A program made the position numbers and the translations under genes. From an uncultured Syntrophaceae bacterium (lineage in GTDB: Bacteria; Desulfobacterota; Syntrophia; Syntrophales; UBA4778): 64,000 nucleotides of DNA. The stretch is taken from contig CAZRAC010000001.1 in the NCBI GenBank assembly GCA_964597995.1, forward strand, positions 23,556-87,555, written 5' to 3'. The notes under the pieces were generated by a model, which worked only from the letters and a program-made list of their open reading frames with translations, had not been told where the DNA came from and did not search any database. Of this stretch, positions 5,358-64,000 are shown piece after piece (the first letter of the stretch is position 1; each line of letters opens with the position of its first letter).

Positions 5358-6221
5358 ATGAAGAAGGCGCTTCTCGTGGTTTTGCTGCTTGTCCTCACGG
5401 TTTCCCATGTCTATGCCGCCCAGTCCGCGATCACGGAGGCGGAGGGTTACGCCTGCCAGGGGGAGGACAAGTCGAGGAGGCAGACGGAGCAGGCCGCGAC
5501 GGCCGACGCGAAACGCAAGGCCATCGAGCAGGTCTCCGCGTATGTCACGAGTGAGACGGAGGTAAAGGATTTCACCCTCCAGAAGGACCTGGCCCAGGCC
5601 TACTCGCGGGCGACCGTCAAGGTCATCCAGGAGTTGGAGAAGGGGTGGTACCGGGATGCCTCCCTCGGCGATTGCTACCGGATAAAGGTCAAGGCCGAGG
5701 TGATCCCCGACGAACAGGAGATGATGGCGATTGCGAAGGGCAAGACGGCGGACGACCCATCGGCGCCGCTTTGCGTCCGGGTCTGGACGGACAAACAGGC
5801 CTACGGGGCGGGCGAGCGGGTCAAGGTCTACCTCAAGGGCAACAAGCCCTTCTATGCCACGATCCTTTATAGGGATGCCGGAGGGAAGCTCGTACAACTC
5901 CTCCCCAACCCCCACAGGAAGGACAACTACTTCAACGGCGGAGTCGTCTATGAGGTCCCCGCGGGCAACGACCGGTTCGAGTTGGAGGTGGCCCCGCCCT
6001 TCGGCGAGGAGCAGGTCATCGTCTATGCGGGCACCACCCCGCCGGGAGACGTAAGTGTAGTGGAGCGGGGCGGGGTGTACGAGGTCAAGACCCGGGCCTC
6101 CGAGGTCGGTGAACGGACACGGGGCGTCAAGCTCACCCAAAAACTCAGCGCTGCCGGTGCGGTAGCCGCGGAGTTCTTCGAGGGGAAGGCGACCCTGACC
6201 ACGGAAGGCAGTAAGCGATGA
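5358..6221 (+). CDS. Secreted DUF4384 domain protein
   Basis: Signal peptide MKKALLVVLLLVLTVSHVYA. The C-terminal half VRVWTDKQAYGAGERVKVYLKGNKPFYATILYRDAGGKLVQLLPN matches the DUF4384 pattern. The stop overlaps the next start (ATGA at 6218-6221). Confidence 0.7.
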   Translation: MKKALLVVLLLVLTVSHVYAAQSAITEAEGYACQGEDKSRRQTEQAATADAKRKAIEQVSAYVTSETEVKDFTLQKDLAQAYSRATVKVIQELEKGWYRDASLGDCYRIKVKAEVIPDEQEMMAIAKGKTADDPSAPLCVRVWTDKQAYGAGERVKVYLKGNKPFYATILYRDAGGKLVQLLPNPHRKDNYFNGGVVYEVPAGNDRFELEVAPPFGEEQVIVYAGTTPPGDVSVVERGGVYEVKTRASEVGERTRGVKLTQKLSAAGAVAAEFFEGKATLTTEGSKR

Positions 6222-12554: not shown

Positions 12555-12708
12555 GACGTCCCCGTAAAAAGTCCAAAAACGTCATGCCGGACTTGATTAA
12601 GCCTGCCCCGTACTCGATACGGGGGCATCCAGAACATATTGAATATACTGGATTCCGGCGTTCGCCGGAATGACGAAACGCGTAATTCTCGACTTTTTAC
12701 GAGTCCAT
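12555..12708 (-). mobile_element. MITE-like element, long (154 bp) variant, copy B
   Basis: Reverse complement reads identically to copy A. Flanked by perfect 7-bp direct repeat CAATCTT (12548-12554 and 12709-12715). Confidence 0.8.
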
Positions 12709-12758
12709 CAATCTTTATTCGGTGTCTAAAAAACCCTTGACCCGTATGAACGACCTCG

Positions 12759-22186: not shown

Positions 22187-22522
22187 ATCCGTTACTCCTT
22201 TGGAGCATTGGTATCGCTCATTAGGCTAACATTAAAACTCATCTACATGCCGCGACCCTCCACATTTCCGTGCAGATGTTAGCCGGGGGCATGGGGAATG
22301 TCAAGGTGATTTTTGGAAAATTCTTAAATGATTTCAAGCCAGAATGTGCTTACAGTGGGCAGATGGGATAACAGAACGCTGAAATAGTCCTGGCCCGTTG
22401 CCTCATAAAAATTGTTACCGAAGGATAGGCTGATCGCGGTAAAGATGTCCTTTCTTTTTAATACGAGATTCGCTTATAATTCGGTGCCTGACGGTTGATG
22501 TCTTTTGACGAAAGGATTCCCG

Positions 22523-23848
22523 ATGGATTACGTCCCGCATACGCCTGCCGATGAAGAGGCCATGCTGCAGACGATCGGCGTCGGGTCGGTCGAAGACCTT
22601 TTCGCGGACATCCCGGAGCGCTACAGGCTGAAAAGACTCCTCGACCTGCCGCAGCCCCTTTCCGAGCAGGAACTCTCCGCCCTGATGAGGGAGATCGGTT
22701 CTGAGAATAAGGTCCCCGAGATAACGTTGATGGGCGCGGGGGCTTACAATCACTACATCCCGGCCGTCGTCGGTCACGTCGTCTCACGGAGCGAGTTCTA
22801 CACCGCCTATACCCCTTACCAGGCCGAAGTCAGCCAGGGCATCCTTCAGGTGATTTACGAATACCAGACGATGCTCGCCCGTCTCACCGGAATGCAGGTG
22901 GCGAACGCCTCTATGTACGACGGGGCTTCGGCGATGGCCGAGGCGGCCGTCCTGGCGGCAAAGACCCTGAACCGCAGCAAGATAGTGATGGTTAAGAGCG
23001 TCCATCCCGAGTACCGCCGGGTTGTGAAGACTTACTGCTGGGCGAACGGATACGAATGCGTGGAAACAGCCTGGGGAAGCTCCGGTCAGGCCGACATCCC
23101 TTCACTGGAGCAGGCGGTTGACGAAAACACGGCGGCCGTCCTGGTGCAGAGCCCGAACTTCTTCGGCATCATCGAGGATATCGCTGCGATAGAACCTGTG
23201 GTTCATGCGAAAGGCGCCCTCCTCGTTTCGGGGTTCACCGAGGCGACCTCCCTCGGCATCCTCAAGCCTGCCGGGGCGTCTGGGGCCGATTTCGTCGTGG
23301 GCGAGGGGCAAAGCTTCGGGAACCCGATGAATTACGGCGGTCCCTATCTCGGTATCTTTGCGGGCACCGACAGATTTCTGCGAAAAATCCCCGGCCGCCT
23401 TGTCGGGGCGACGGTGGATAGAGAAGGCCGTCGGGGATTCGTTCTTACGCTTCAGACAAGGGAACAACACATCCGCCGGGAAAAGGCGACATCAAACATC
23501 TGCTCCAACGAGGCCCTCTGTGCCCTGGCCGCGGCCGTCTACCTCGTCAGTCTGGGGAAAAAACTGAAAGACCTGGCAGGGTTGAACATCCGGAAGGCGC
23601 AGTATTTGAGGAGCCGACTCCTGGAGCTGCCCAGTTGGGAACCGGTCTTCACCGGCGCGGTCTACAATGAATTCGCCGTCCGCTGTCCCGACGCAAGAGA
23701 GGTCAACCGGAGGCTCGAGGCGCGGGGGATCGTCGGCGGCTATGATCTCGAGAAAGACTACCCCGAACTTGAAAACTGCCTGCTCTTCTGCGCAACCGAG
23801 ATGTTGCAGAAGAAGGACATGGACATGGTCGCCGCCCTCGTTGCTTAA
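22523..23848 (+). CDS. gcvPA: Glycine dehydrogenase (aminomethyl-transferring) subunit 1
   Basis: The conserved N-terminus [15 protein letters not shown] starts at ATG 22523 (the listed ORF starts at 22505). YTPYQAE is the family motif. Confidence 0.9.
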
Positions 23849-23864
23849 GAAGAAAGGAACCGCC

Positions 23865-25307
23865 ATGAAACTTATCTTCGAGAAGAGCCGGCCCGGAAGA
23901 AGCGCAACGACCCTGCCCGCCACAGACGTCCCCGCCCTGCCTGTGGAAACGGTCATCGACAAAAACTTGCTCCGGGAGGACCTCGGCCTGCCTGAGGTCG
24001 CGGAAATAGACCTCGTCCGCCATTACACCCGGCTTTCCGGGAGGAATTTCGGCGTGGACTCGGGTTTCTACCCCCTCGGTTCCTGCACGATGAAGTACAA
24101 CCCAAAAATCAACGAGGACATAGCCCGGCTGGCCGGGTTCACCGCCCTCCACCCTTACGCCCCGGAGCGGTTTTCCCAGGGCAACCTCCGCCTCCTGTAC
24201 GAGTTGCGGCAATACCTGAGCGAAATCTTCGGTATGGGGGATTTTGCCCTTCAGCCCGCGGCAGGCGCCCACGGGGAATTGACGGGCGTGATGGTCATCA
24301 AGAAATATTTCGAAAAGAAGGGAGAGAAGCGAACCCGGATGCTCATCCCGGACACCGCCCACGGAACAAACCCGGCCTCCGGGGCGCTCTGCGGCTACCA
24401 GGTCGTCACAGTCCCCTCGAACGACGAGGGGGGCGTCGACATCGACCGCCTCCGGGAGCTGATGACGGAGGACGTGGCCGGCCTTATGCTCACCAACCCC
24501 AACACGCTCGGGCTCTTTGAGCGGAACAGCGAACGCGTCGCCCGGATCGTCCACGAAAAGGGCGGGCTCCTTTACTGCGACGGGGCGAACGCGAATGCCT
24601 TTCTGGGGAAGACAAGGCCCGGCGACCTCGGTTTCGACGTCATCCAGTTAAACCTCCACAAGACTTTCGCCACACCCCACGGCTGCGGCGGTCCCGGGAG
24701 CGGCCCCGTCGGCGTGGCAAGGAAGCTCGTCAAATTTCTCCCCGTCCCAAGGGTAGTCAAAAAAGGGAAGAAATACCTCTGGAGCTACGACCATCCCGAC
24801 TCGATCGGCCGGGTCCGTGCCTTCTACGGTAATTTCAACGTGATCGTAAAGGCCTATGCCTACATCCGTTCTCTCGGCCCGGAGGGCCTCCGGAAGGTGA
24901 GCGAAGCGGCGGTCCTGAACGCCAATTACATCAAGGAAAGGCTGCGGCCTTACTACGAGCTACCTTACGACCGGACCTGCATGCACGAGTGCGTCTTCTC
25001 GGGCAGAAAGCAGGTGAAGGAAAGCGGCGTCCACACCTCGGACATCGCTAAGCGTCTCCTCGACTACGGCTACCACCCGCCGACTATCTATTTCCCGCTT
25101 ATCGTCCCGGAAGCTATCATGATCGAGCCGACTGAGACCGAAAGCAAGGAGACCCTCGATGCCTTCTGCGACGCCATGATCGCCATCGCCGGGGAGGCAA
25201 AGGAAAACCCCGAACTCGTCAAGTCGGCGCCCCTCACCACCCCGGTCAGGCGTCTCGACGAGGTGAAGGCCGCCCGCGAGCCCGACGTCTGCCGGCGTGA
25301 ATCGTGA
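23865..25307 (+). CDS. gcvPB: Glycine dehydrogenase (aminomethyl-transferring) subunit 2
   Basis: True start is ATG 23865 ([12 protein letters not shown]). [10 protein letters not shown] and NLHKTF (PLP lysine) are present. The long upstream extension of the listed ORF overlaps gcvPA. Confidence 0.9.
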
Positions 25308-25324
25308 ATAAGTGACGGCCGGAG

Positions 25325-26182
25325 GTGGGAATGCAGGTCAGTGGTCGTAAACCGGACTGGCTCAAGGTCAGGCTGCCGCACACGCCGGAATTCAACCGCG
25401 TAGCGGCAACGCTCGCGGATTGTCGCCTCCATTCCGTCTGCCGGGAGGCCCGCTGCCCGAACATCGCCGAGTGCTTCCATAGCGGAACGGCGACCTTCCT
25501 CATCCTAGGAAACGTCTGCACCCGGCACTGCTTGTACTGCAACGTCCGCCACGGCGTCCCCTCGGCCCCCGATGCCGGTGAACCTGCCCGTCTGACGGAG
25601 GCGGCGACCCGGCTGAACCTGCGTTACGTGGTGATCACCTCTGTCACGCGAGACGACCTCCCCGACGAGGGAGCAGGTCTATTCGCCGAGTGCATCGAGA
25701 CGCTCAGGGCGGGAGTCCCCGGCTGCAGGGTGGAGGTCCTCATCCCGGATTTCCGGGGAAACCCGCAGGCGTTGGACAAGGTAGCGAATGCCCGGCCCGG
25801 CGTGATCAACCACAACATGGAGGTCGTAAGGCCGCTCTTCCCGGCCCTGCGACCCCAGGGCGATTACGGTATCTCCTTGGAAATCATAAGCCGCATAAAG
25901 AGATACGATGCCAAGATCATCAGTAAATCCGGGTTCATGGTCGGCCTGGGGGAGGGCTGGGGCGACATCATCGATCTTATGGAAGACCTGGCGGGGGCCG
26001 GCTGCGAGCGCCTCACCATCGGGCAGTACCAGCAGCCCCGTCGGGATAACGCCCCGGTGCAGAGGTACTATCATCCTGAGGAGTTTGAGAGGTTGAGGGA
26101 GATTGCCCTCGGGATGGGGTTCCAGCACGTGGAGGCCGGGCCTCTGGTCCGCAGCTCTTACCATGCCGCCGGGGCAGATTAG
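25325..26182 (+). CDS. lipA: Lipoyl synthase
   Basis: 285 aa. CPNIAEC auxiliary cluster and radical-SAM CTRHCLYC motif. Confidence 0.9.
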   Translation: MGMQVSGRKPDWLKVRLPHTPEFNRVAATLADCRLHSVCREARCPNIAECFHSGTATFLILGNVCTRHCLYCNVRHGVPSAPDAGEPARLTEAATRLNLRYVVITSVTRDDLPDEGAGLFAECIETLRAGVPGCRVEVLIPDFRGNPQALDKVANARPGVINHNMEVVRPLFPALRPQGDYGISLEIISRIKRYDAKIISKSGFMVGLGEGWGDIIDLMEDLAGAGCERLTIGQYQQPRRDNAPVQRYYHPEEFERLREIALGMGFQHVEAGPLVRSSYHAAGAD

Positions 26183-26191
26183 GGGGTAAAC

Positions 26192-27553
26192 GTGGCGAGG
26201 GAATATGACATCGTCGTCATCGGCGCCGGTCCCGGCGGTTATGCTGCCGCAGAGAAGGCCGCCCGCCTCGGCGCCCGGGTGGCCGTAGTGGAAAAGGAAA
26301 GATGGGGCGGAACTTGCGCCCACGTGGGCTGTATCCCCACGAAGGCCCTCCTCGCCGGCAGCAGGAGATACGCGGAGATAAAGAAGCTGGAGCGCCTCGG
26401 GACGGCCGTCAGCGGCGCTTCCTTTGATTACCAGGGCCTAAAAAGGCACAAGGAGCAGATGGTGCGCCTCGCAGCGGCCGGCGTCAGAAAAACCCTTCAG
26501 GATGTGGGGGCGGAGAGGTTGGAAGGGACGGGGCATTTACTCTCACCTTCTGAGGTCGAAGTTGCAGGAGCAGGCGGGGAAAGGACACGGTTGCGGGCAA
26601 GACGGGTCCTTATCGCCTGGGGGTCGGAGCCCCTATCCCTTCCGGGTGTCAGGCTTTCCGACCGCGTCATGAATTCCGACGGTTTTCTCGCCCTAAACAG
26701 GCTGCCCGCGAGCGCCGTAGTCGTGGGGGGCGGTGCGATCGGCGTCGAATTCGCTAACTTTCTGGCGGAGTTGGGCATTCGGGTGACCCTCGTCGAGCTC
26801 TTGAGTCAGATCCTCCCCTCTGAGGATAAGGATGCCGCCGACTTCCTCGCCGGAGAATTGACCAAGGCGGGCGTCGAGATTTATACCTCGACGCGGATGA
26901 CCTCTCTCGAAGAAAGGGAGAAAGAGGTCCTCCTGGTAGGGGAGAAGGAAGGCAGAGAATTGACGGCCCGGGCGGAGTGCGCCCTTATCGCCACGGGACG
27001 AAGGCCCCTCATCCATGCCGGAGAACTCGACCGGCTCGGGATCGTATACGATGGTCGTGGAGGGATCACCGTGACAGAACGCCAGGAGACTTCGGTGGAA
27101 AATGTCTACGCCGTGGGCGATGTCACGGGGGGCTTGCTCCTTGCCCACAGGGCGAGTGCCCAGGGAAGGGCGCTCGCCAACCATCTCTTCGGCGACGGAG
27201 AGCTCTTCTACGACGAAAAGGCCGTCCCTTCCGTTGTTTACACCCATCCGGGCCTTGCCCGTGTGGGACTGACCGAGAAGGAGGCCCGCGCGCGGGGTAT
27301 GGATGCCGAAATCAGACGGGCGGAATACGGCGCCAACATGACCGCCCGGACGGAACTGATGGGGAACGGCTTCGTGAAGGTCCTGCTCTCTTCGGGAAAG
27401 GTCTGCGGCGTAACTATCGTCGGCGAAGGGGCGTCGGAACTGGTAGCCGCCGCGGGCCTCGCCATGACGGGCGAAATGGCGGAGCGCGACCTGAGAAAAT
27501 GGGTCCTGCCCCACCCGAGCCTGGGAGAGCTCCTCGGCCTCTTCGCCCCCTGA
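26192..27553 (+). CDS. lpdA: Dihydrolipoyl dehydrogenase
   Basis: 453 aa with a GTG start. GAGPGGY FAD motif and redox disulfide GGTCAHVGCIPTK. Confidence 0.85.
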   Translation: MAREYDIVVIGAGPGGYAAAEKAARLGARVAVVEKERWGGTCAHVGCIPTKALLAGSRRYAEIKKLERLGTAVSGASFDYQGLKRHKEQMVRLAAAGVRKTLQDVGAERLEGTGHLLSPSEVEVAGAGGERTRLRARRVLIAWGSEPLSLPGVRLSDRVMNSDGFLALNRLPASAVVVGGGAIGVEFANFLAELGIRVTLVELLSQILPSEDKDAADFLAGELTKAGVEIYTSTRMTSLEEREKEVLLVGEKEGRELTARAECALIATGRRPLIHAGELDRLGIVYDGRGGITVTERQETSVENVYAVGDVTGGLLLAHRASAQGRALANHLFGDGELFYDEKAVPSVVYTHPGLARVGLTEKEARARGMDAEIRRAEYGANMTARTELMGNGFVKVLLSSGKVCGVTIVGEGASELVAAAGLAMTGEMAERDLRKWVLPHPSLGELLGLFAP

Positions 27554-43029: not shown

Positions 43030-43524
43030 TCAAGAAAACTCGACAAAGGCCTTTTCTTTCGCCCCACAGACGGGACATTCGTCGGGCAACACCCCGTCGG
43101 AGACGTAACCACAGACGGTGCACACATAGTACGTCGTTTCTCTTTCTTCCATCAGGTGGTTCATGGCCTCTTTGTACAGCCGGGCATGTATTTCCTCTAC
43201 GTCCCGACTCTGACTGAAGTGGATCACGGCCGCCCTGTCTCCCTCCGCTTCGGCGATTTTAATGAACTCGCCGTACGCCGTCTGGGCGACCGATTCCTCG
43301 GACTCGAAACTCGCCTTCAGGTTTTCCTCTGTGGATTTCACCTCCCGGAGCAGCTTGAGCGCCCTTTTCGCGTGTATCTCTTCTGAAAAAGCGACGACGG
43401 AGAACAGGCTCGCGACCTGGCGGTAGCCCTCCTGTGCCGCCTTTTCCGCGTATATCTTCAGCCTGACCGCCGCCTTTGCCTCGCCCGTGTACGCCTGGTG
43501 GAGCGCATCTTTTACTGTCGTCAT
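43030..43524 (-). CDS. rbr: Rubrerythrin
   Basis: Start ATG 43524 (GGAGGAGGG RBS). Ferritin-like diiron domain (YTGEAKA, E..H motifs) plus a C-terminal rubredoxin-like CTVCGY...CPVCG. Confidence 0.85.
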   Translation of the reverse strand: MTTVKDALHQAYTGEAKAAVRLKIYAEKAAQEGYRQVASLFSVVAFSEEIHAKRALKLLREVKSTEENLKASFESEESVAQTAYGEFIKIAEAEGDRAAVIHFSQSRDVEEIHARLYKEAMNHLMEERETTYYVCTVCGYVSDGVLPDECPVCGAKEKAFVEFS

Positions 43525-43529
43525 GGCAT

Positions 43530-43694
43530 CTATCCCTCCTCCGGAGAAAATTCTTCTTTCCCTGAACCGCAGATAGGACACGTCCAGTCGTCGGGAAGTT
43601 CTTCGAACGGCGTTCCCGGGGGGATATTACCGTCCGGGTCGCCGGCGGCAGGGTCATACACGTAACCGCACACATTGCACACGTACTTTTTCAT
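43530..43694 (-). CDS. rd: Rubredoxin
   Basis: 54 aa, too short for the ORF track. Hand translation: [54 protein letters not shown], with both CxxCG knuckles. Confidence 0.85.
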
Positions 43695-43707
43695 CTCCCA
43701 CTCCTTC

Positions 43708-44907
43708 TCAAGCGTTTAGTATATCGGCCAATTTCTCCCCCAACTCCCGGCAGGCGGCAAGGTCGGAAGTAGTCGGGACGTGCCTGACCCGCAGGGGTTC
43801 CAACGGCAACGCCGCCTTCATCTCCTTGAGGACCTCGTTTACCTGGAGGGTGCCCTCGCCGCTCCACCCGTAAGAACCGAAGGCGGCGCCGACGACGTTC
43901 AGCGGCCGCAGGCCCTTCAAGTAAGTGAGGACGTCTGCTACCTTGGGGAGCATGTTGTTGTTCAGGGTGGATGTGCCGACGACGAGGGCCGCCGCGTCGA
44001 GCATCTCGTATGCGATATCGCTGCGGTGGAACGCGTCGACGGCCATGACCTTGGCCGGGACGCCCCGGGATGAAAGTCCCTCGCCGATGTAACGGGCCAT
44101 TTTCTCCGTGCTGTGCCACATGGTGCCGTAGACTACCACCGCCTTCTTCGCCCGCTTCTGCTGGGCCCACCGGCGATAACGTTCTACGATCCATCCGGGG
44201 TTCCGGCGCCATACGGGGCCGTGGTCCGGGGCGATCACATCGAAGCTCAGGCCCGCCGAGTCTACCCTGGCAAGGAGCTTGGTCATCAGTCCCGCATAAG
44301 GGAGAAGAATGTTAGCAAAGTACGTAGCCGCCTCGTATTCGAGGACGGCGGTGTCGACCTCGTCGGCGAAGCGCTCATGGGAGGCCAGGTGCATACCGAA
44401 GGCGTCATGGGAAAACAGGAGTTTCTCCTCCTGGAGGTAGGTGAACATGCTGTCGGGCCAATGCAACATCCGCGTCTCCATGAAGGATAAGGTCATGTTG
44501 CCGAGGGAGACCGACCGGCCGTCGGCGACGGCTGTGATCCCCGTCGAGAGGGAAGGCGAAAGTTCGGCCAAGGTTTTGACCCCCATAGGAGAGGCGTACA
44601 CCTCCCGGGGCCGAATTTCTTCTATCACCTCCGCCAGACAACCGGAATGGTCCATCTCGGAATGGTTGGAGACGACGACCTCGACCTTCCGGGGGTCTAT
44701 GACTGAGGCAACGCGGGAGAGAAACTCTTCCTTGAAAGGCTTCTTCACTGTGTCGACGAGGGTTACCCTGTCGGCAAGGATCAGATAGGCGTTGTACGAA
44801 GAGCCCCGCCGCGTCGTGTAACCGTGAAAGTCGCGGAGCGTCCAGTCGACGGCGCCTACCCAGTAAACTCTTTCCGTGATGGGAATCGCACGATACGCTT
44901 CGGCCAT
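43708..44907 (-). CDS. fprA: FprA-family A-type flavodiiron protein (rubredoxin:oxygen/NO oxidoreductase)
   Basis: 399 aa. Metallo-beta-lactamase-like N-terminal half ([10 protein letters not shown]) plus a flavodoxin-like C-terminal half ([15 protein letters not shown]). Confidence 0.85.
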
Positions 44908-45260: not shown

Positions 45261-46400
45261 TTACAAGCAAATTCCCGCCTTCGCGGCAAGCCCGGAAATG
45301 ACTCCCCGTCCTCTTCCGGGATTTCGGTTCTGGACGCTCACCCACTCAACCAGTTTTTTCAAGGGTCTTCCCGACTCCACTTCCTCGAGGGCGGTCTGAA
45401 CGCCGTCCCTGAGCGAAAGAGACTTGCCGGCAAGCCACAATATGATGCCGGCATTGAAAGCCACAATGTCCGTCCGCGATTTCTTTCCCCTTCCCGCAAG
45501 GGTTCTTAGTGCGTCCACCGATTCATCCGCCACGCCTTCCATCGGCCGGATATCCTCATAGCTCCCCCTTGTCAGTCCCGCATCTTCCGGGTATAGTTCC
45601 AGGTACTCCACGTCGCCATCTTCTTTCAGAAGGCCGAGCCTTGACTTCCCCAGGGTCGATAGTTCATCCATCCCCCTGTCCCCCTTCTCGTCCCAGCCGT
45701 GGTATACGACCGCTTTACGGTACCCAATCCGCCGCATTACCTCGATCGTCGGTTCTATCTGACCCGGAGACCCAACACCGCGGGCTCCCAGGGACGGCAG
45801 CGCCGGATTGGCGAGGGACGCGGCGATATTCAGTGTCGTCCCGAACCGTATCTGCGAGAGGACCCTCCCCAAACCCCCGGGATGAACCTTCGGACTCATA
45901 CCGTTGAAGAGGCCGAGACCGCATATTTCGACCGACCGCGACACTATACCCACATCACAATCTACGTCAACGCCAAGGGCCCGACACAGGTCCACGGTGC
46001 CGCATCGGGAGGTTATCGCCGCCGCGCCGTGTCTCGCGAGACGGACGCCCTTGCTCGCGGCGACTATTGCGGAAAGGGTGCTTATATTGAAGGTTTTCAG
46101 AGAATCCATCCCCGTCCCGCAGTTATCGACAAGGGTGTCTCTATCGATCTTTACCTTGTTTGTGTCGAGGTTATAGATCGCATCGAAGCACCCCGCGATT
46201 TCCTCGACGGTTTCTCCTTTCATCCTCAGCGCTGCCAGAAAAGCGCCCTTTTGCAGATCCGGCTGATCCCCGAAGAGGATGTCCGAAAAGGCCTCCCTGA
46301 CTGTCTCCCGGGAGAGATTTTCCCTTGCCATCAGCGAAATTATGAGCATTCCGAAGTGTTTCAATTTTTGCTCTTCCATCGCGGCGTTCTCCTTCCTCAA
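45261..46400 (-). CDS. Divergent anthranilate phosphoribosyltransferase (TrpD/glycosyltransferase family 3)-like protein
   Basis: 379 aa. LAALRMKGET.EEI and DNCGTGMDSLKTFNISTLSAIVAAS match the TrpD fold. The canonical GTGGD and KHGNR motifs are altered (GTGMD, RHGAAA). Confidence 0.7.
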   Translation of the reverse strand: MRKENAAMEEQKLKHFGMLIISLMARENLSRETVREAFSDILFGDQPDLQKGAFLAALRMKGETVEEIAGCFDAIYNLDTNKVKIDRDTLVDNCGTGMDSLKTFNISTLSAIVAASKGVRLARHGAAAITSRCGTVDLCRALGVDVDCDVGIVSRSVEICGLGLFNGMSPKVHPGGLGRVLSQIRFGTTLNIAASLANPALPSLGARGVGSPGQIEPTIEVMRRIGYRKAVVYHGWDEKGDRGMDELSTLGKSRLGLLKEDGDVEYLELYPEDAGLTRGSYEDIRPMEGVADESVDALRTLAGRGKKSRTDIVAFNAGIILWLAGKSLSLRDGVQTALEEVESGRPLKKLVEWVSVQNRNPGRGRGVISGLAAKAGICL

Positions 46401-47419
46401 AATCTATCGATGATCACTTTTTTCGTTTCATGCTTCTCCAGCATTTCCATGCCTTTCACGATATCGGTCAGGGGGATCCTGCGTGTGTTCAAAAAAGAGA
46501 CGTCTACACCGCCTCCCGCGAGCATGCCAAGCGCCCTGTCAAAGTCTTTTTTGTTACATCCGTACGACCCTGCGAGGGTGATTTCCCGGTAATGCAGTCT
46601 GTTTATATCGACCGGGATGAGGGGTTTTTCGCCGTCTGTCCCTGAAAACAACGACACGCATCCGCCTGGCTTCATCACGTCCCAGAAGGGCCATGAAAGC
46701 CCCCCGCTGCATGCCGGGATGACCAGATCGATCTCGCCGGCAATTTTCATTTCCCTCAATCTTTCCGTAACGTTTGCCCTCGATACATCGAGCGGCATAA
46801 CACCTTCCGGCAACTCGCCGGCAAGCCTCCGGGGGTCGCGGTCGGCCATTATCACACAGTCCCAGCCTTCCGACTGCAGTAGGGCCGCAAACAGACTTCC
46901 CATGGCGCCGGCCCCGACGATGAGCGCCGCACCCTTGCTTATTTGCTTGAACTTGTCCGTGGCGCTCAAACAACACGCCAGCGGTTCCGCCAGGACGGCA
47001 TCCTCATTTTTGAGGTGGAGCGGGATGGGAACGAGGGACTTCGTCTCCTCTTCCGCGAAGGGAATTATCGTCTGAAAAAAACCGTCTTTATTGAAGCCGT
47101 AAATGTGGAGCGCTCCGCAGCGTCCGGTATGACCGCTCTTACAGGCGTTACAGGCGCCGCAGTAAGAGCCGGGGTAGACAGCCACCCTGACTCCCGCCTT
47201 GAACAGGGGGTTTTCACTTTCTACGATCACACCGACCCCTTCGTGACCCAACACCCGCGGATATACGAGATCCTTGTGTCCTCTCCGCACCATCTTGATA
47301 TCCGTTCTGCATATGGCCACCGCCTCCATAGCAACGAGGACGCCCCCGGGAGGAAGTGAAGGCCGGCTGGTTTGGACCACCGCAAGCGCCCCGATTTGTT
47401 TCAGCAAAGCCCTTTTCAT
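46397..47419 (-). CDS. Zn-dependent MDR-family dehydrogenase (threonine/sorbitol dehydrogenase-like)
   Basis: Start ATG 47419 (GGAG RBS). Catalytic Zn ligands AICRTD and GHEGVG. Structural Zn CGACNACKSGHTGRC. GAGAMG NAD motif. Confidence 0.8.
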   Translation of the reverse strand: MKRALLKQIGALAVVQTSRPSLPPGGVLVAMEAVAICRTDIKMVRRGHKDLVYPRVLGHEGVGVIVESENPLFKAGVRVAVYPGSYCGACNACKSGHTGRCGALHIYGFNKDGFFQTIIPFAEEETKSLVPIPLHLKNEDAVLAEPLACCLSATDKFKQISKGAALIVGAGAMGSLFAALLQSEGWDCVIMADRDPRRLAGELPEGVMPLDVSRANVTERLREMKIAGEIDLVIPACSGGLSWPFWDVMKPGGCVSLFSGTDGEKPLIPVDINRLHYREITLAGSYGCNKKDFDRALGMLAGGGVDVSFLNTRRIPLTDIVKGMEMLEKHETKKVIIDRF

Positions 47420-47435
47420 TTTCGATTCACTCCAT

Positions 47436-47483
47436 AAAAAAAGCCGCTTGAAACACACACAGCATGTGTTCCAGGCGGCTTTT
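47436..47483 (-). terminator. Riboswitch expression-platform terminator
   Basis: Minus strand: AAGCCGCCTGGAACACA-TGC-TGTGTGTTTCAAGCGGCTT followed by TTTTTTT. It lies 17 nt upstream of the start codon at 47419. Confidence 0.6.
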
Positions 47484-47499
47484 GGCATCACCTAACCTG

Positions 47500-47730
47500 T
47501 TGACCGGTCAGGCAGGTCTTCTGGCTCTCCCCGTCACCGCTCGCCTTCCCGGCCTGTAATCACAGCCAGTGACTTTTCACCCGAAACCAAGGCGGCTCCG
47601 GGGCTTTGCGGCAACATCACTGCACCCGTTTGAATGGGGTCGGGGATCACAGCATCGGCCTCAATGCGGTGGATTCACGCCACCTTCCCTTTTTCACCCT
47701 CATGCCAGGGCACCTGACCGTTATGCGCCC
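47500..47730 (-). promoter_or_regulatory. Cobalamin (B12) riboswitch
   Basis: The minus strand reads GGTCAGGTGCC...AAAAAGGGAAGGTGGCGTGAATCCACCGCA...(B12 box) AAGTCACTGG...CCGGGAAGGCG...GAGAGCCAGAAGACCTGCCTGACC, with P1 GGTCAGG/CCTGACC. This matches the consensus blocks of the cobalamin aptamer. Confidence 0.85.
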
Positions 47731-47764
47731 TTAAGAATCACGTTTACCGGTAATTGTCAAGGTT

Positions 47765-47861
47765 GACGCCCTCGTAAAAAGTCCAAAAACGTCATGCCGG
47801 ACTTGATCCGGCATCCAGAACATATTGAATATACTGGGTTCCGGCGTTCGCCGGAATGACG
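47765..47861 (-). mobile_element. MITE-like element, short variant, truncated (copy D)
   Basis: GACGCCCTCGTAAAAAGTCCAAAAACGTCATGCCGGACTTGATCCGGCATCCAGAACATATTGAATATACTGGGTTCCGGCGTTCGCCGGAATGACG. It lacks the 26-nt internal module and the far terminal ~40 bp. Confidence 0.6.
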
Positions 47862-48078
47862 GACGATGGTCTTTCCCGACGTTTTGCTTGACGCCCGCCG
47901 AAAGCCCCCCTATACTCAATTACCAAAAAAGGAAATTCCTGTCAGTTTTTTGCCAGTTATAACCCCTTCCGGGAAGGAAGTTCCTGTCAATCACGTCGGT
48001 TTATGCCGTTTGGGCGCGGTAAAGCGGGCGAGGCGCGAAGCGTCGAGTAACGGTTACTGAAGGGATGGAGAAAGGATC

Positions 48079-53799: not shown

Positions 53800-55194
53800 T
53801 CACTTGCCGACGCAGAAAGACGCGAAGATCCGGTCTAAGATGTCTTCGCTTGTTGTCTCTCCGGTTATTTCACCTAGGCACCGCAAGGCATCCCTGATGT
53901 CCTGGGCGGCGAACTCCGGCGAGAGGCCCGAAGCCAGGCTCTCCCCGGCTTGTGCGAGGAATTCGGCTGTCCTTTCGAATGCGTCCTTGTGGCGCACGTT
54001 ACAGAGGACCTCTTCCCCGCGTCCCATCTCTTCTCCATCGAGGACGGTCTCTAATATCCTTTTTTTCAGGTCTTCTATTCCGCTGCCGAACTTCGCCGAG
54101 ATCATGAGAGGTCTTGGCCCCGGAAAGACCCCTTCGACGTCCGCCCGGCCGAGGCGCTGCGGCAGGTCGCTCTTGTTGACCGCTACAATGACTTTTTTCC
54201 CCTTCAACCCCTCCAGTATCCGGATGTCGTCGGAGGAAAGACCCTCGCTCCCGTCCAGGAGGAAGACGACGGCGTCCGCCCGCGCGACCCTTTCCCAGAC
54301 CCGGCCTATGCCTTCCTCTTCGATCACGTCTCCGGCCTCCCTGATGCCCGCCGTGTCTGCCAGGCGAACGGCCACGCCGCCGACCTGTATCTCCTCTTCG
54401 ATGAAATCCCTCGTGGTGCCGGGGATGGGTGTCACGATAGCCCTTTCCTCCCCGAGAAGCCGATTCAGGAGGCTCGACTTCCCCACATTGGGCCTTCCGG
54501 CGATCACGACGTGAATGCCCTCACGGTAGAGACGCCCTTCGTCATAAGTAGCGAGCAATCTTGCGATTTCCGCTGCTACGGCTCCTATCTTTCCCGCCGC
54601 CTCGGACGGCGGCTCCGTCTCTATGTTCTCCTCAGGGAAATCCACGGCCGCTTCCAGCATGGCCAGTTGCTCCTCCAGTACCGCCCGCATCTCTTTGACC
54701 TTTTCGGCAAGGCCGCCCTTGAGCTGGGCGATGGCGACTTCCCGGGCCTTCGCCGCCCTCGCGGCGACGAGGTCGGCAACGGCTTCCGCCTGGGAGAGGT
54801 CCATCCGGCCGTTGAGAAAAGCCCGGCGGGTGAACTCTCCCGGTTCCGCGGGCCTGGCCCCGGCCTTCAACACCTCCTCGAGCACCGCCCGCAGAACGGC
54901 GGGGCTGCCATGACAATGTATTTCCAGGGTATCTTCGCCGGTGTAGGAATGGGGCGCCCGCATCAGGACGACCAGGGCCTCGTCGAGGACGGCCCCGCTC
55001 TCTCGGGCCAGGACATCGCCGTGATAGAAATGGTGGGTAGCAAAGGGACAGGGCCGTTTTCCGGGCCGGAAGAGCAGACGCCCGACTTCTTCCGCTTTCG
55101 GGCCGCTCACCCGGATGACGCCGATACCCCCCGCCCCCGGCGGCGTGGCGACGGCCGCGATCGTGTCTTCTTTCCCGGTCGAAACCGCGCGGAT
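53800..55194 (-). CDS. mnmE: tRNA modification GTPase MnmE
   Basis: G-domain GRPNVGKSSL, DTAG, NKSD and the C-terminal CVGK tail. The conserved N-terminus DTIAAVATPPGAGGIGVIRVSGP lies upstream of the first canonical start (GTG 55110). I extend to ATC 55194, which has AAGGAG 8 nt upstream. The 5' end is uncertain. Confidence 0.8.
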   Translation of the reverse strand: MRAVSTGKEDTIAAVATPPGAGGIGVIRVSGPKAEEVGRLLFRPGKRPCPFATHHFYHGDVLARESGAVLDEALVVLMRAPHSYTGEDTLEIHCHGSPAVLRAVLEEVLKAGARPAEPGEFTRRAFLNGRMDLSQAEAVADLVAARAAKAREVAIAQLKGGLAEKVKEMRAVLEEQLAMLEAAVDFPEENIETEPPSEAAGKIGAVAAEIARLLATYDEGRLYREGIHVVIAGRPNVGKSSLLNRLLGEERAIVTPIPGTTRDFIEEEIQVGGVAVRLADTAGIREAGDVIEEEGIGRVWERVARADAVVFLLDGSEGLSSDDIRILEGLKGKKVIVAVNKSDLPQRLGRADVEGVFPGPRPLMISAKFGSGIEDLKKRILETVLDGEEMGRGEEVLCNVRHKDAFERTAEFLAQAGESLASGLSPEFAAQDIRDALRCLGEITGETTSEDILDRIFASFCVGK

Positions 55195-55199
55195 GAGGC

Positions 55200-55916
55200 T
55201 TACTCCTTCTTTTTCGGCAGGATTATGATCTTCCTGTACATCCCCTCGCCCCTGCTCTTTGTGGTAAGGGCTTCGTCGTCCTTCAGGGCAATATGGATGA
55301 CCCTGCGGTCGCGGGCGCTCAGGTGGTTGACCGTTATCGGTTTCTTCGACTTTTTGACCTTCTGCCCCAGCTTCTGCGCCAGCGCTACCAGGTATTCGTC
55401 CCTTCGGTCCCGGTAGTCTTCCGTGTCGAGGACTATCATCCTCCTGTCCCTGCCCGGTTTTCCGACCGCTTTATTGAGGATGTACTGTATGGCGTCGAGG
55501 GTCTGGCCACCCTTGCCGATGAGCAGCCCGGAGCCGTCTCCCTTGATGTTCAACGTGACGGCCTCGTCCGTTTCTTCGACGGTCACAGGGAAATCCATCC
55601 CCATCCGCGAAAGAATCCCTGTCAGGATCTCCCGCGCCTTTTCCGCCGTATCCCCCGTTTCCGTTGTCTTTTCAGAGGGTTTCTCCGGCGTAGCCTCCGC
55701 CGTTTCTTTTGCCGCCTCCGTCCCCATCTCGAAGGTCAGGAGGCTCGCCCGGATGCGGGCCTTTTTCGTTCCCACGAGGCCCAGCAGCCCGGAAGACCCC
55801 TCCGACAGGATTTCGATGTTCAGCTTCTCGCGGGGCACGTTGAATTCCCTGCAGGCATTCTGTATCGCCTCGTCAATGTTCTTTCCTTCGACCTCAAGGG
55901 CATTCATCTGAAACAC
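55200..55916 (-). CDS. jag: Jag/KhpB RNA-binding protein (Jag_N, KH, R3H)
   Basis: 238 aa. N-terminal Jag domain (EGKNIDEAIQNACREF), KH-like LLIGKGGQTLDAIQY, and R3H (RRVIHIAL). Confidence 0.85.
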   Translation of the reverse strand: MFQMNALEVEGKNIDEAIQNACREFNVPREKLNIEILSEGSSGLLGLVGTKKARIRASLLTFEMGTEAAKETAEATPEKPSEKTTETGDTAEKAREILTGILSRMGMDFPVTVEETDEAVTLNIKGDGSGLLIGKGGQTLDAIQYILNKAVGKPGRDRRMIVLDTEDYRDRRDEYLVALAQKLGQKVKKSKKPITVNHLSARDRRVIHIALKDDEALTTKSRGEGMYRKIIILPKKKE

Positions 55917-55920
55917 CTCG

Positions 55921-57537
55921 TTAGATCAATTTCTTGTTGATGTAATACTGCTGGCCGATACTCAGGATGTTGTTGAACAACCAGTAGATGACCAACCCGG
56001 AGGGAAAATTCAGGAACAGGAAGGTGAAGATGATCGGCATGATCAACATGACCTTCTGTTGCATCGGGTCGCCTGCGGTGGGGGTCATCTTCTGCTGCCA
56101 AAACATGGTCGCCCCCATGATGATCGGTGTGATGTAATAGGGGTCCTTCGCCGAAAGGTCTTGAATCCACCAGACGAAGGGTTGATGACGGAGCTCGATG
56201 GAATAGAGTAGCGCCTTGTAGAGCCCGAAAAATACTGGGATTTGGATGAGTATCGGCAGACACCCGCCCAGAGGGTTGATCTTGTATGTCTTGTAGAGCT
56301 GCATGACCTCCTGGTTGAGGCGCTGCTTGTCGTCCTTGTATTTCGTCCTCAGCTCATTGATCAGGGGCTGCAGTTTCTGCATGTCCTTCATCGATTTGTA
56401 GCTCTTGTTGCCCAGGGGCCAGAAAATGACCTTGATCACGGCCGTCAGGATGAGGATGGCCACTCCGTAATTATTGACGAACTTGTAAAGAAAGTTAAGG
56501 GCAATCAGGAGGGGCAATGCCAACCATTTGATCCAGGAGCCGAAGTCGATGGCGTTTTCGAGGCCTACGCCTTCCGCTGCCAGGGCCTTGTGTTCTTTAG
56601 GGCCGAGGTAGAGAGAATAGCCGAAGACGGCAGCCTGACCCGTCGGGACGATGTTGGCCGGACCTTCCAGGGCGACGGTCACCTGGTTGGAAGCGTCCTT
56701 TGCTGTTATGAGGCCTGTCAGCGACGGTTGCTTCGGGATCAACGCCGCGATGAAATACTTGCTCTCGAAGCCTCCCCAGGAAACAGGCGGAGGGAAGACC
56801 TTCCGGGCCTCCATCTTACTGACGGTCACGGTCTCCACGTCGTCCTTGATGCTGTAAACCGGACCCGCATGGCCGTAACTATCCTCAACAGCCTTGGGGT
56901 CGACGTATTGGTTCCAGGACAATTGCGCCTTTTCGTTCAGGTTGGCGGCCGTGGGATTGAAGACCCGGACCTCAAGGTCGACATGATACCGGTCTGCGTA
57001 GAAGATGAATGTCTTTTCGACCTGCACCCCCTCCGGCGTGGCAAGGGAGAAGTTCAGCCTGCCACTTTCGCCCGCCTGCGCGAGCACGACGGAGTCGGCA
57101 TCCGCCCTGTACACGCTGTCGGGGGCGATGTTTACGCTCGAATCGACGAAGGAAACAGCAAGCGGCGGGGCCATCCCTTCTTTGACCTCCACAAGGTCTA
57201 CTAGGTCCGAGTTCTCGTCCAGGGTCTTGCGGTAGGATTTCAGCTTGAAGGATTTCAGGCCGGCCCCTTTTGTCGTGAAAATTGCCACATACAGAGGCGT
57301 TTCAACCCTGACTTCCCGGGCAGGCATTGAGACGACGGCATGGCGAGGGGCCTTCGCCGGGGCGGGGGTTATCGCCGCGACCGGCTGAGACTTTGCCTGC
57401 GTCTGCTGAGGGGCGACCTGCCCTTCCTTCGAGGAGGACGTAGTCGGTTGTTGCGGCGCCGGCTTGACAAAAAAGTACTGAAAAACCAGGACAACGGCGA
57501 AGGATAGAACGATGGCAAGGACTGTCTTTTTATCCAT
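55921..57537 (-). CDS. yidC: Membrane protein insertase YidC
   Basis: 538 aa. N-terminal TM, a large periplasmic domain, and a conserved C-terminal core (GCLPILIQIPVFFGLY, PSGLVIYW). Confidence 0.9.
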   Translation of the reverse strand: MDKKTVLAIVLSFAVVLVFQYFFVKPAPQQPTTSSSKEGQVAPQQTQAKSQPVAAITPAPAKAPRHAVVSMPAREVRVETPLYVAIFTTKGAGLKSFKLKSYRKTLDENSDLVDLVEVKEGMAPPLAVSFVDSSVNIAPDSVYRADADSVVLAQAGESGRLNFSLATPEGVQVEKTFIFYADRYHVDLEVRVFNPTAANLNEKAQLSWNQYVDPKAVEDSYGHAGPVYSIKDDVETVTVSKMEARKVFPPPVSWGGFESKYFIAALIPKQPSLTGLITAKDASNQVTVALEGPANIVPTGQAAVFGYSLYLGPKEHKALAAEGVGLENAIDFGSWIKWLALPLLIALNFLYKFVNNYGVAILILTAVIKVIFWPLGNKSYKSMKDMQKLQPLINELRTKYKDDKQRLNQEVMQLYKTYKINPLGGCLPILIQIPVFFGLYKALLYSIELRHQPFVWWIQDLSAKDPYYITPIIMGATMFWQQKMTPTAGDPMQQKVMLIMPIIFTFLFLNFPSGLVIYWLFNNILSIGQQYYINKKLI

Positions 57538-59683: not shown

Positions 59684-59932
59684 GGCTCATTGCATCGAAG
59701 CTTCACCCGTTTTCGTCTGACAGAAAAAATTGTGGGTCCTCTTCGGTACCGGCTACGAACATAGACGTAGCCGACCAACCAAAACCATGGTATAAAAACT
59801 CGTGGACATACTCCCCCCTTCGTATCCGGAAATTTTTATGCTTTTCCTTTTTGGGGTGCATGTCCATCTTTTTCAACCGCCAAGCGAACGCACTAACCGG
59901 ATGAACCGCCTCATTTTGGACGATTATGGTTG

Positions 59933-60062
59933 ATGGACTCGTAAAAAGTCGAGAATTACGCGTTTCGTCATTCCGGCGAACGCCGGAATCCAGTATATTC
60001 AATATGTTCTGGATGCCGGATCAAGTCCGGCATGACGTTTTTGGACTTTTTACGGGGACGTC
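59933..60062 (+). mobile_element. MITE-like element, short (130 bp) variant, copy E
   Basis: Same termini as copies A and B, without the 26-nt internal hairpin module. Flanked by ATGGTTG / ATGGTTA (6 of 7 positions match). Confidence 0.75.
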
Positions 60063-63908: not shown

Positions 63909-63925
63909 TCAACCTTTGAAAATTG

Positions 63926-64000
63926 ATGGACTCGTAAAAAGTCGAGAATTACGCGTTTCGTCATTCCGGCGAACGCCGGAATCCAGTATATTCAATATGT
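63926..64000 (+). mobile_element. MITE-like element, copy F, cut by the window end
   Basis: ATGGACTCGTAAAAAGTCGAGAATTACGCGTTTCGTCATTCCGGCGAACGCCGGAATCCAGTATATTCAATATGT is identical to the first 75 nt of copy A. Confidence 0.7.

Follow-up and report, generated by a model that had tools for sequence, protein, structure and literature searches.

Lower-ligand identity decides which organisms can share cobamides, and nucleotide-loop assembly by CobT, CobU/Y, CobS and CobC/Z is usually treated as complete. CobT displaces nicotinate from β-nicotinate mononucleotide (β-NaMN) and forms an α-ribotide, the form that cobamides require. Enzymes of the TrpD type displace pyrophosphate (PPi) from α-phosphoribosyl pyrophosphate (PRPP) with inversion, which gives a β-N-ribotide. 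The operon described here lies on the minus strand of a stretch of 64,000 nucleotides from an uncultured Syntrophaceae bacterium (GenBank assembly GCA_964597995.1, contig CAZRAC010000001.1, positions 23,556 to 87,555), which we call the window. It consists of a cobalamin riboswitch, a gene for a Zn-dependent medium-chain dehydrogenase/reductase (MDR) and a gene for a TrpD-fold phosphoribosyltransferase-like protein, hereafter TrpD-like. Judging from the riboswitch and from the neighbours of the pair in other genomes, the two genes are likely, with good confidence, to serve cobamide biosynthesis at or around lower-ligand activation and to be repressed by cobamide.

With regard to TrpD, the anthranilate phosphoribosyltransferase (AnPRT), the substrate-binding residues are known for the Mycobacterium tuberculosis (Mtb) enzyme: N117, S119, T120, K135, D251 and E252 bind pyrophosphate and Mg2+, G107 and G110 of the GTGGD motif bind the 5'-phosphate, and N138 and R193 hold the anthranilate carboxylate, their substitution raising the Km for anthranilate (PMC9835598). 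CobT occurs in two classes that are reportedly not homologous (PMC7617358). Only four benzimidazoles are explained by the bza genes (PMC6461909), and benzimidazole, 5-methylbenzimidazole and naphthimidazole also occur naturally (PMC8123684). BzaF is a paralogue of ThiC and uses aminoimidazole ribotide (AIR) (PMC7617358). In Escherichia coli, up to half of the phosphoribosylamine (PRA) for thiamine depends on the threonine dehydratase IlvA together with TrpD (PMC4725005). As for regulation, a compendium of riboswitch regulons from 2013, including its supplements, lists trpD under T-box and Trp leaders only, and one paper on Chlorobium has a figure in which 'trpD' and 'DH' are drawn alongside cobalamin genes without comment. 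An earlier note on this DNA, made without database searches, had remarked that neither gene family is a standard member of the B12 regulon, and both are indeed absent from the regulon lists searched. The control, with a B12 riboswitch ahead of biosynthetic genes, is of a known kind, and what is new is the pair of enzymes under it.

The riboswitch and the two genes behind it

The riboswitch was identified by an Rfam scan across the whole window, with the curated gathering scores as threshold. The match to RF00174 (Table 1) extends over model positions 1-189 of 189 and scores 62.3 bits against a gathering score of 31.5 (E 5e-13), and no further Rfam match reaches the gathering level in the 64 kb. 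The complete B12 aptamer that the earlier note had recognised is borne out by this full-model covariance match, and the terminator that it assigned to the aptamer was found at exactly the same coordinates. In the fold of positions 47400-47510 of the minus strand, the terminator stem consists of AAAAGCCGCCUGGAACACAU...GUGUGUUUCAAGCGGCUUUU, followed by U7, with a ΔG of -37.4 kcal/mol and a z score of -3.1; an equally good fold was obtained in 1 of 200 shuffles. A simple terminator scan did not report this hairpin, which was detected by RNA folding. It lies within the 75-nt spacer between the aptamer and the first start codon. Operons of other genomes in which the MDR gene comes first also show a strong hairpin and a U-tract 3' of the aptamer, as in the window. 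The leaders of the operons of Desulfobacterales that start with the TrpD-like gene are longer and look like translational control.

The elements of the switching model were read from the sequence, and we infer their regulatory function from the riboswitch class. With cobamide bound, the aptamer would let the hairpin and the U7 tract form, and transcription would halt short of the MDR start codon. With little cobamide, the polymerase would read through into the MDR-TrpD-like operon. The promoter is putative: no convincing -10 element follows the TTGACA hexamer upstream of the aptamer, and a promoter scan did not report the hexamer. Further upstream lies one copy of a dispersed, hairpin-rich repeat of about 100 nt, which occurs at five intergenic sites of the window with the core GTCATTCCGGCGAACGCCGGAATCCAGTATATTCAATATGTTCTGGATGCC (0.14 copies expected by chance) and looks like a REP- or MITE-like element. 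The copy just upstream of the riboswitch provides a terminator-like hairpin at 47814-47794.

Both genes start downstream of the codons at which their open reading frames had been called. The MDR frame was called as 46397-47491, and its GTG at 47491 falls inside the leader; the real start is the ATG at 47419, downstream of the terminator. The TrpD-like frame was called as 45261-46400, from a TTG at 46400, and homologues begin at MEEQKLKHFG, which corresponds to the ATG at 46379. With this start the two genes are 17 nt apart, and the 4-nt overlap described in the earlier note was an artefact of the TTG start. The order that it gave, with the riboswitch directly upstream of an operon of an MDR and a TrpD-fold protein, stands with the two corrected start codons.

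The MDR protein matches Pfam ADH_N with 73.3 bits (cutoff 23.5), and its match to ADH_zinc_N falls just under the cutoff (31.3 against 31.8). Among the NCBIfam equivalogs its best scores are about 100 bits, where the cutoffs lie at 380-470. The threonine dehydrogenase (Tdh) models are among the equivalogs that it misses (NF003808, 99.4 against 380; TIGR00692, 86.8 against 458), and its closest relative in the PDB is an uncharacterised structural-genomics protein. It belongs to the polyol/threonine-dehydrogenase branch and is the orthologue of no named enzyme. Across 75 orthologues, the catalytic cysteine, the GHE motif (His-Glu), the four structural-zinc cysteines, EPxxC and GxGxxG are at least 90% conserved. 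As the zinc ligands and the Rossmann motif are retained to this extent, the protein is very probably an active Zn/NAD(P) dehydrogenase rather than a scaffold.

The TrpD-like protein matches Glycos_transf_3 (PF00591, 148.6 bits) and Glycos_trans_3N (PF02885, 60.6 bits). It also passes the cutoff of the NCBIfam trpD equivalog TIGR01245 (229.8 against 199.05), because of which its relatives are labelled 'anthranilate phosphoribosyltransferase' in every source. The AlphaFold2 model has a pLDDT of 92.4, and the best 50 PDB matches found with Foldseek are all AnPRT (TM 0.76-0.92). The identity to canonical TrpD is 35-40%, with 9ucw as the best PDB match (E 6e-47). Models of YbiB and AMP phosphorylase match much more weakly (41 and 42 bits), and neither of the two window proteins matches the CobT models DBI_PRT (PF02277/TIGR03160) and archaeal TIGR00303. 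The earlier note had called the protein a divergent TrpD with altered motifs: GTGMD and RHGAAA are present as described, and by score the protein is not very divergent.

The motifs are shared by a family. Among the best 120 homologues (50-98% identity), which come from Syntrophales, Desulfatiglans, Chloroflexi, Firmicutes, Syntrophoarchaeum and other archaea, GTGMD is present in 120 of 120 and (K/R)HGARA in nearly all. RHGAAA (residues 116-121) is restricted to the window protein and its closest relative, the arginine equivalent to Mtb R139 having been lost in this lineage only, so that this part of the note's description applies to the lineage and not to the family. When 1.8 billion cluster representatives were searched exhaustively, full-length scores dropped from at least 277 to at most 199 bits precisely where the motifs switch to canonical GTGGD/KHGN. 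A neighbour-joining tree gave a separate clade, comprising the GTGMD sequences and one GSGAD variant, in 29 of 30 bootstraps. The GTGMD motif alone was rejected as the mark of a monophyletic group (2 of 100 bootstraps), with one GSGAD sequence nested inside. Sister lineages (P0244, P0249, P0250, P0266, P0267 and P0281; loci L085-L087) have the rebuilt 'GRxLSQxRF' helix in common with it, together with GTGGD, GTGAD, GSGAD or GTGSD. Their contigs, among them those of P0244 (GTGGD) and P0249 (GTGAD), both with the 'LSQxRF' helix, are too short for gene context and hence for a link to B12 to be seen.

When aligned with the Mtb enzyme, the TrpD-like clade keeps the equivalents of the PPi/Mg ligands N117, S119, T120, K135, D251 and E252, in NIST (NxST), K/R-H-G and GMDE. 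The fourth residue of GTGGD, G110 in Mtb, is replaced by methionine. Both carboxylate ligands are also replaced, N138 by Ala119 and the arginine of helix α-8 (R193) by an invariant Leu174. A second canonical arginine (giRT) aligns with Gly180, the 'GP' of FNxxGPLxNP becomes 'AS', and an extra C-terminal helix carries conserved K342, W346 and Q350. As the PPi/Mg residues are kept while the carboxylate ligands and 'GP' are replaced, the protein looks like an enzyme with a preserved donor side and a rebuilt acceptor side. From Syntrophales to Methanothrix, in bacteria and archaea alike, this rebuilt pocket hardly varies.

Conservation of the pair and its association with CobT

A genome scan gave at least 559 stretches encoding relatives, and the comparison was made on 80 loci, with one genome per species, and on 4 further loci reached via individual proteins. 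The MDR gene adjoins the TrpD-like gene in 75 of the 80 loci (tblastn), in both gene orders and in bacteria as well as archaea. Two of the five remaining loci are interrupted by a contig end, and at the MDR-less loci L049, L062, L076 and L031 the neighbours are unrelated (UbiA, a MetA-pathway porin, an ABC system and a racemase). The carriers are anaerobes throughout. Among the bacteria they belong to Syntrophales, Desulfatiglandales, Desulfobacterales, Desulfobulbales, Peptococcaceae, Desulfitobacteriaceae, Eubacterium limosum, Ca. Formimonas, Dehalococcoidia, Aquificota, Calditrichota, Bacteroidota, Fibrobacterota and Omnitrophota, with one purple sulfur bacterium. Among the archaea they belong to Methanomassiliicoccales, Methanothrix, ANME-1, Syntrophoarchaeum, Methanolliviera and Methanosuratincola.

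In 31 of the 44 bacterial loci, the genes are preceded by a same-strand cobalamin riboswitch, and every one of these scores above the Rfam gathering score. Five of the 13 negative loci have no upstream sequence and eight are evaluable, so that the proportion is 31 of 39 where usable upstream DNA exists. Orthologous pairs thus carry B12 riboswitches elsewhere, which the earlier note had proposed as a check. Thirty of the riboswitches lie within 340 nt of the first gene and one lies 4.1 kb upstream, at the head of a longer operon. The association of module and riboswitch spans at least eight bacterial phyla. In the archaeal loci, a sequence-profile scan for the cobalamin riboswitch found none, as expected.

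Several leaders show further features. In the Desulfobulbales loci L061 (about 7375-7980) and L084 (about 7405-7968), leaders of about 600 nt precede the TrpD-like gene and have zero Rfam matches, while the remaining loci of Desulfobacterales and Desulfobulbales have a cobalamin riboswitch at the equivalent position. These two leaders may contain a diverged riboswitch or a different control. Clustered cobalamin riboswitches, each heading its own unit, are found at L074 (6706-6911, 10883-11137 and 13909-14106) and L001 (6436-6637 and 9133-9318), where the units are MDR-TrpD-like(-cobT) followed by genes of the size of TonB receptors or by bzaF. In Ca. Formimonas warabiya, the riboswitch-controlled pair is closely preceded by a group II intron (RF02005, RF00029; L030, 4244-4479 and 6056-6129).

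With regard to the neighbouring genes, CobT is the commonest after MDR and the sole other one that recurs widely: it is adjacent in 30 of the 80 loci, and also at L001 and L003. Eighteen of these 30 adjacent genes encode the bacterial DBI_PRT type and 12 the archaeal TIGR00303 type. The archaeal CobT (309.5 bits against a TIGR00303 cutoff of 240) lies directly upstream of the MDR-TrpD-like pair in 12 loci of Methanothrix and relatives, and at L063 its stop and the MDR start share 4 nt. As both unrelated classes of CobT adjoin the pair, the association is with the CobT reaction and not with a protein fold. Other genes of the pathway are much rarer near the pair in the 80 genome loci, with CobS at 1, CobU at 4, CobQ at 4 and BzaF at 0, to which the separately found L001 adds one each. 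None of the trp genes (trpE/G/C/F/B/A) is recurrent among the neighbours in the 80 loci. In archaea, the other recurrent neighbours are lineage-specific and uninformative (pterin-binding, LarA-like, HdrD-like, AI-2E transporter, MiaB-like and acetyl-CoA synthetase). At L020 and L031, of Syntrophobacteria/Desulfobacteraceae, genes of the Asp/Glu racemase family and 3-hydroxyisobutyrate-dehydrogenase-like genes lie directly 3' of the TrpD-like gene.

The dehydrogenase and CobT are also found as one polypeptide. An MDR::CobT fusion of about 700 aa (ADH_N + ADH_zinc_N + DBI_PRT) is the product of the gene that follows the TrpD-like gene in 11 loci, which belong to Desulfobulbales, Desulfobacterales, Bacteroidota and Fibrobacterota. 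When one fusion was used for a database search, the best 120 matches all had the same architecture of about 700 aa and were all annotated simply as CobT. The fusion is widespread in Desulfocapsaceae, Desulfobulbaceae and some Bacteroidota, and its cultured carriers include Desulfopila, Desulforhopalus, Desulfogranum and Desulfomarina. Besides the fusion, Draconibacterium has another CobT that stands alone, with cobU, cobS and cobQ after it. Three gene orders place the pair within larger cobamide clusters: cobQ-cobU-cobA / RS-MDR-TrpDL / RS-bzaF-cobT-bzaC-bzaD-bzaE-cobS at L001 (RS, riboswitch; TrpDL, TrpD-like), cobQ-cobU-cobA / RS-MDR-TrpDL-cobT-cobS-cobD-cbiB at L010, and TrpDL-MDR-...-btuF/C-like-cobU-cobQ in Aquificota. 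Taken against the functional set of cobamide nucleotide-loop and lower-ligand genes, the pair shows both co-localisation and fusion.

Possible functions of the pair

The conserved adjacency and the fusion lead us to infer that the pair works with CobT, and we consider it probable that the operon is a cobamide-repressed accessory module for the lower-ligand activation step, that of CobT, in anaerobes. The earlier note had imagined a phosphoribosyltransferase fold that activates a lower-ligand base in a CobT-like manner. The link to the CobT step is strongly backed by the riboswitches, the adjacent CobT genes and the fusions. The CobT-like activity itself fares less well, since the TrpD-like protein co-occurs with an intact CobT as its partner and its pocket is invariant. 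The stereochemistry points the same way: the inversion expected of a TrpD-type enzyme gives a β-ribotide and cobamides need the α-ribotide, so the TrpD-like protein could not simply replace CobT.

With regard to the acceptor, the pocket is invariant across taxa expected to differ in their lower ligand, among them Eubacterium limosum, which makes 5,6-dimethylbenzimidazole (DMB). This points to a constant metabolite rather than a variable base as the probable acceptor. Three components of the CobT reaction are constant: NaMN, nicotinate and the ribose-phosphate moiety. The TrpD-like protein might, with low certainty, use PRPP to phosphoribosylate a small, universal nitrogen acceptor other than anthranilate, and the resulting β-ribotide would serve CobT. 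In the highest-rated and most economical version of this scheme, though still a doubtful one, the nicotinate set free by CobT would be turned back into NaMN. Nicotinate would in this way serve as a catalytic carrier, and base and PRPP would be converted into α-ribotide and PPi via two inversions. As the MDR is fused to CobT, the dehydrogenase would act on a substrate or product of CobT. More generally, TrpD-like, MDR and CobT may form a three-enzyme unit with a chemistry that is absent from the textbook nucleotide-loop pathway, either a PRPP-driven carrier cycle or a redox tailoring of the lower-ligand ribotide; we propose this tentatively.

Several points weigh against this interpretation. 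The window holds no other cob gene and the pair stands alone there, as it does, away from cob genes, in many Syntrophales and Firmicutes genomes. No riboswitch is detectable in the eight evaluable bacterial loci mentioned above. The role given to the pair draws on genomic context and residue conservation, and no published description of the family was found in the full-text literature, in which the coverage of subscription journals is thin and an earlier mention is possible. The regeneration of NaMN, for its part, leaves the dehydrogenase without a role, and NaMN is already supplied by NAD synthesis while B12 needs little flux. It also fits the pocket poorly, as nicotinate is a carboxylate and the canonical carboxylate clamp is lost. 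The invariant Arg172, two residues upstream of Leu174, could be a substitute clamp.

Other reactions near the lower ligand have to be weighed against a constant acceptor. The MDR and the TrpD-like protein might make or modify the base or ribotide that CobT handles, for example by NAD(P)H-dependent reduction and dehydration of 5-hydroxybenzimidazole ribotide or by release of the free base from a β-nucleotide. Cobamides outside the Bza and BluB schemes would result, such as benzimidazolyl- or 5-methylbenzimidazolyl-cobamide. Room for such a route exists, as the bza genes explain four benzimidazoles only (PMC6461909) and the further bases listed above are natural (PMC8123684). The MDR::CobT fusion suggests consecutive steps, and the module, like the Bza pathway, is confined to anaerobes. 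Relatives of Methanothrix soehngenii, Desulfobulbus and Desulfobacterium, from which 5-methylbenzimidazolyl-cobamides have reportedly been isolated, carry the module. We nevertheless regard this route as unlikely: the almost invariant pocket, together with the DMB of E. limosum, speaks for a constant substrate more than for a lineage-specific base, and PRPP would be left without an obvious role. An invariant pocket would also suit a universal acceptor from which PRA is made independently of PurF. In that case the MDR would make a labile amino-keto compound or enamine, the TrpD-like protein would phosphoribosylate it with PRPP, and hydrolysis would yield PRA, which the purine enzymes would convert into AIR for benzimidazole synthesis by BzaF/BzaAB. 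A precedent is the IlvA and TrpD route of E. coli (PMC4725005), and BzaF, a ThiC paralogue, uses AIR (PMC7617358). The tight coupling of the genes would suit the channelling of a labile acceptor, the module occurs in anaerobes only, and at L001 the pair lies directly upstream of bzaF. That locus is the only one at which BzaF is adjacent, as against none of the 80 genome loci and 30 of 80 for CobT. The MDR is fused to CobT and not to BzaF or a purine enzyme, pur genes are not nearby, and the MDR scores far under the threonine dehydrogenase cutoffs, which makes a PRA feeder quite improbable.

The remaining explanations leave the lower ligand aside. The earlier note had let a threonine-dehydrogenase-like enzyme feed the aminopropanol linker; in such a scheme the MDR would oxidise threonine and thereby supply aminoacetone or aminopropanol for the aminopropanol-phosphate linker. 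This would agree with the weak resemblance of the MDR to threonine dehydrogenases and with the L010 operon, which runs on into cobD and cbiB. With Tdh equivalog scores this low, with CobT rather than CobD/CbiB as the recurrent partner and fusion partner, with a CobD homologue and hence the known threonine-phosphate route present at L010, and with a PRPP enzyme left without a role, we consider the linker supply very improbable, and this part of the note's hypothesis did not hold. A B12-independent bypass of the metE or nrdDG kind, or an ordinary trpD of tryptophan synthesis that came to lie behind a riboswitch by chance, is hardly credible at all. Cobalamin riboswitches do control B12-independent isozymes, and the NCBIfam trpD cutoff is passed; the pair, however, adjoins or is fused to CobT and other cob genes, also in archaeal loci in which no riboswitch was found, trp genes are not recurrent among its neighbours in the 80 loci, both anthranilate-carboxylate ligands are replaced, and the clade is separate. 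Three readings, namely the aminopropanol feeder, the ordinary TrpD and the B12-independent isozyme, were accordingly rejected on the basis of the CobT linkage, the replaced carboxylate ligands, the separate clade and the low Tdh scores.

If an accessory module for the CobT step is accepted, the pair points to what may be a so far undescribed step in the assembly of the lower part of B12. The module is conserved like many cob genes, in methanogens, ANME and alkane-oxidising archaea, syntrophs, sulfate reducers, acetogens and Chloroflexi, and its own B12 riboswitch and the CobT fusion imply a missing reaction or supply line at the lower-ligand step. The chemistry of the pair may perhaps be truly new, which we suggest with reserve. 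A new determinant of the lower ligand, if true, would affect the prediction of cobamide structures from genomes, community ecology and engineering, and a redox tailoring, if true, would explain cobamides with bases such as benzimidazole and 5-methylbenzimidazole that lack known biosynthetic genes. Annotation is also concerned: because the curated trpD cutoff is passed, pipelines count TrpD-like proteins as tryptophan biosynthesis, and if either version of the three-enzyme unit is true, a B12 enzyme is mis-annotated as a tryptophan enzyme in hundreds of genomes. Cultured carriers include Eubacterium limosum, Desulfopila, Desulforhopalus and Desulfogranum.

Features of the window and comparison with known systems

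The coordinates of the operon, its leader and the representative CobT genes are collected in Table 1. A gap of 353 nt downstream of the operon separates it from genes for a flavodiiron protein (NorV/FprA-like, 383 bits to PRK11921) and a rubrerythrin (43030-44907, minus strand), which are probably a separate oxygen/NO-stress unit. Elsewhere in the window, a protein of 960 aa with N-terminal WD40 repeats and a C-terminal caspase (Peptidase_C14) domain is encoded at 6218-9100 (plus strand), and a glycine-cleavage P protein and a dihydrolipoamide-dehydrogenase-like gene lie at 22505-27553. The genes mnmE/trmE and yidC are found together at 53800-57537 (minus strand), an arrangement typical of the vicinity of the replication origin.

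Table 1 Positions of the features discussed; coordinates are those of the window unless a locus is named.
Feature	Position	Strand	Basis
Possible -35 hexamer TTGACA	47755-47760	-	Read from sequence, 22 nt upstream of aptamer
Cobalamin riboswitch aptamer (RF00174)	47494-47732	-	Rfam match; orthologous riboswitches at equivalent position in 31 bacterial loci
Expression platform, intrinsic terminator (hairpin of about 20 bp + U7)	47436-47483	-	Between aptamer and first start codon; RNA folding, sequence
Shine-Dalgarno GGAG of MDR gene	47430-47433	-	Read from sequence, 10 nt before ATG 47419
Zn-dependent MDR dehydrogenase, 340 aa	46397-47419	-	Pfam, NCBIfam, PDB search, conservation in 75 orthologues
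Shine-Dalgarno GGAAGGAG of TrpD-like gene	46389-46396	-	Read from sequence
TrpD-fold phosphoribosyltransferase-like protein, 'GTGMD' clade, 372 aa	45261-46379	-	Pfam, NCBIfam, AlphaFold2, Foldseek, neighbour-joining tree
Dispersed repeat of about 100 nt	47790-47880 (-); about 2665-2770; about 12610-12715; about 59930-60035; 63920-64000
Archaeal-type CobT (TIGR00303)	L048:5848-6885		Representative of 12 Methanothrix-group loci
MDR::CobT fusion genes	L061:9295-11385; L056:9308-11410; nine other loci		Pfam domains

Compared with AnPRT TrpD (EC 2.4.2.18; phosphoribosyltransferase class III/IV fold), the TrpD-like protein shares the two-domain fold, with an N-terminal helical bundle and an α/β domain, and the PPi/Mg residues. 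It differs by GTGMD in place of GTGGD, by alanine and leucine in place of N138 and R193, by 'AS' in place of 'GP' and by the extra C-terminal helix. In the examined loci its clade never forms part of a trp operon and is found behind B12 riboswitches, paired with an MDR. CobT/ArsAB (EC 2.4.2.21) resembles the TrpD-like protein in phosphoribosyl transfer, in co-regulation by cobalamin riboswitches and, by genomic association, in the pathway step. In contrast, its fold is unrelated and it makes α-ribotides from β-NaMN, and the pair accompanies CobT without replacing it.

The bza operon (bzaAB/bzaF-cobT-bzaCDE) is, like the pair, specific to anaerobes, preceded by a cobalamin riboswitch and built around cobT, and the two are contiguous at L001. 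The pair has neither a radical-SAM enzyme nor a methyltransferase, usually has a riboswitch of its own and mostly has no bza genes nearby. The IlvA and TrpD route described by the Downs laboratory (PMC4725005) also combines a threonine-acting enzyme, a TrpD-fold enzyme and PRPP, and it feeds the AIR pool of ThiC-family enzymes. That route is a side reaction of a housekeeping TrpD and a pyridoxal-phosphate-dependent dehydratase, whereas here a dedicated paralogue stands beside a Zn dehydrogenase and is linked to CobT rather than to ThiC or BzaF. Finally, the nucleic-acid-binding TrpD2/YbiB and the class II nucleoside and AMP phosphorylases have the fold in common with the TrpD-like protein, with much weaker matches. 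TrpD2 is without the PRPP motif (PMC9835598), whereas the TrpD-like clade keeps it.

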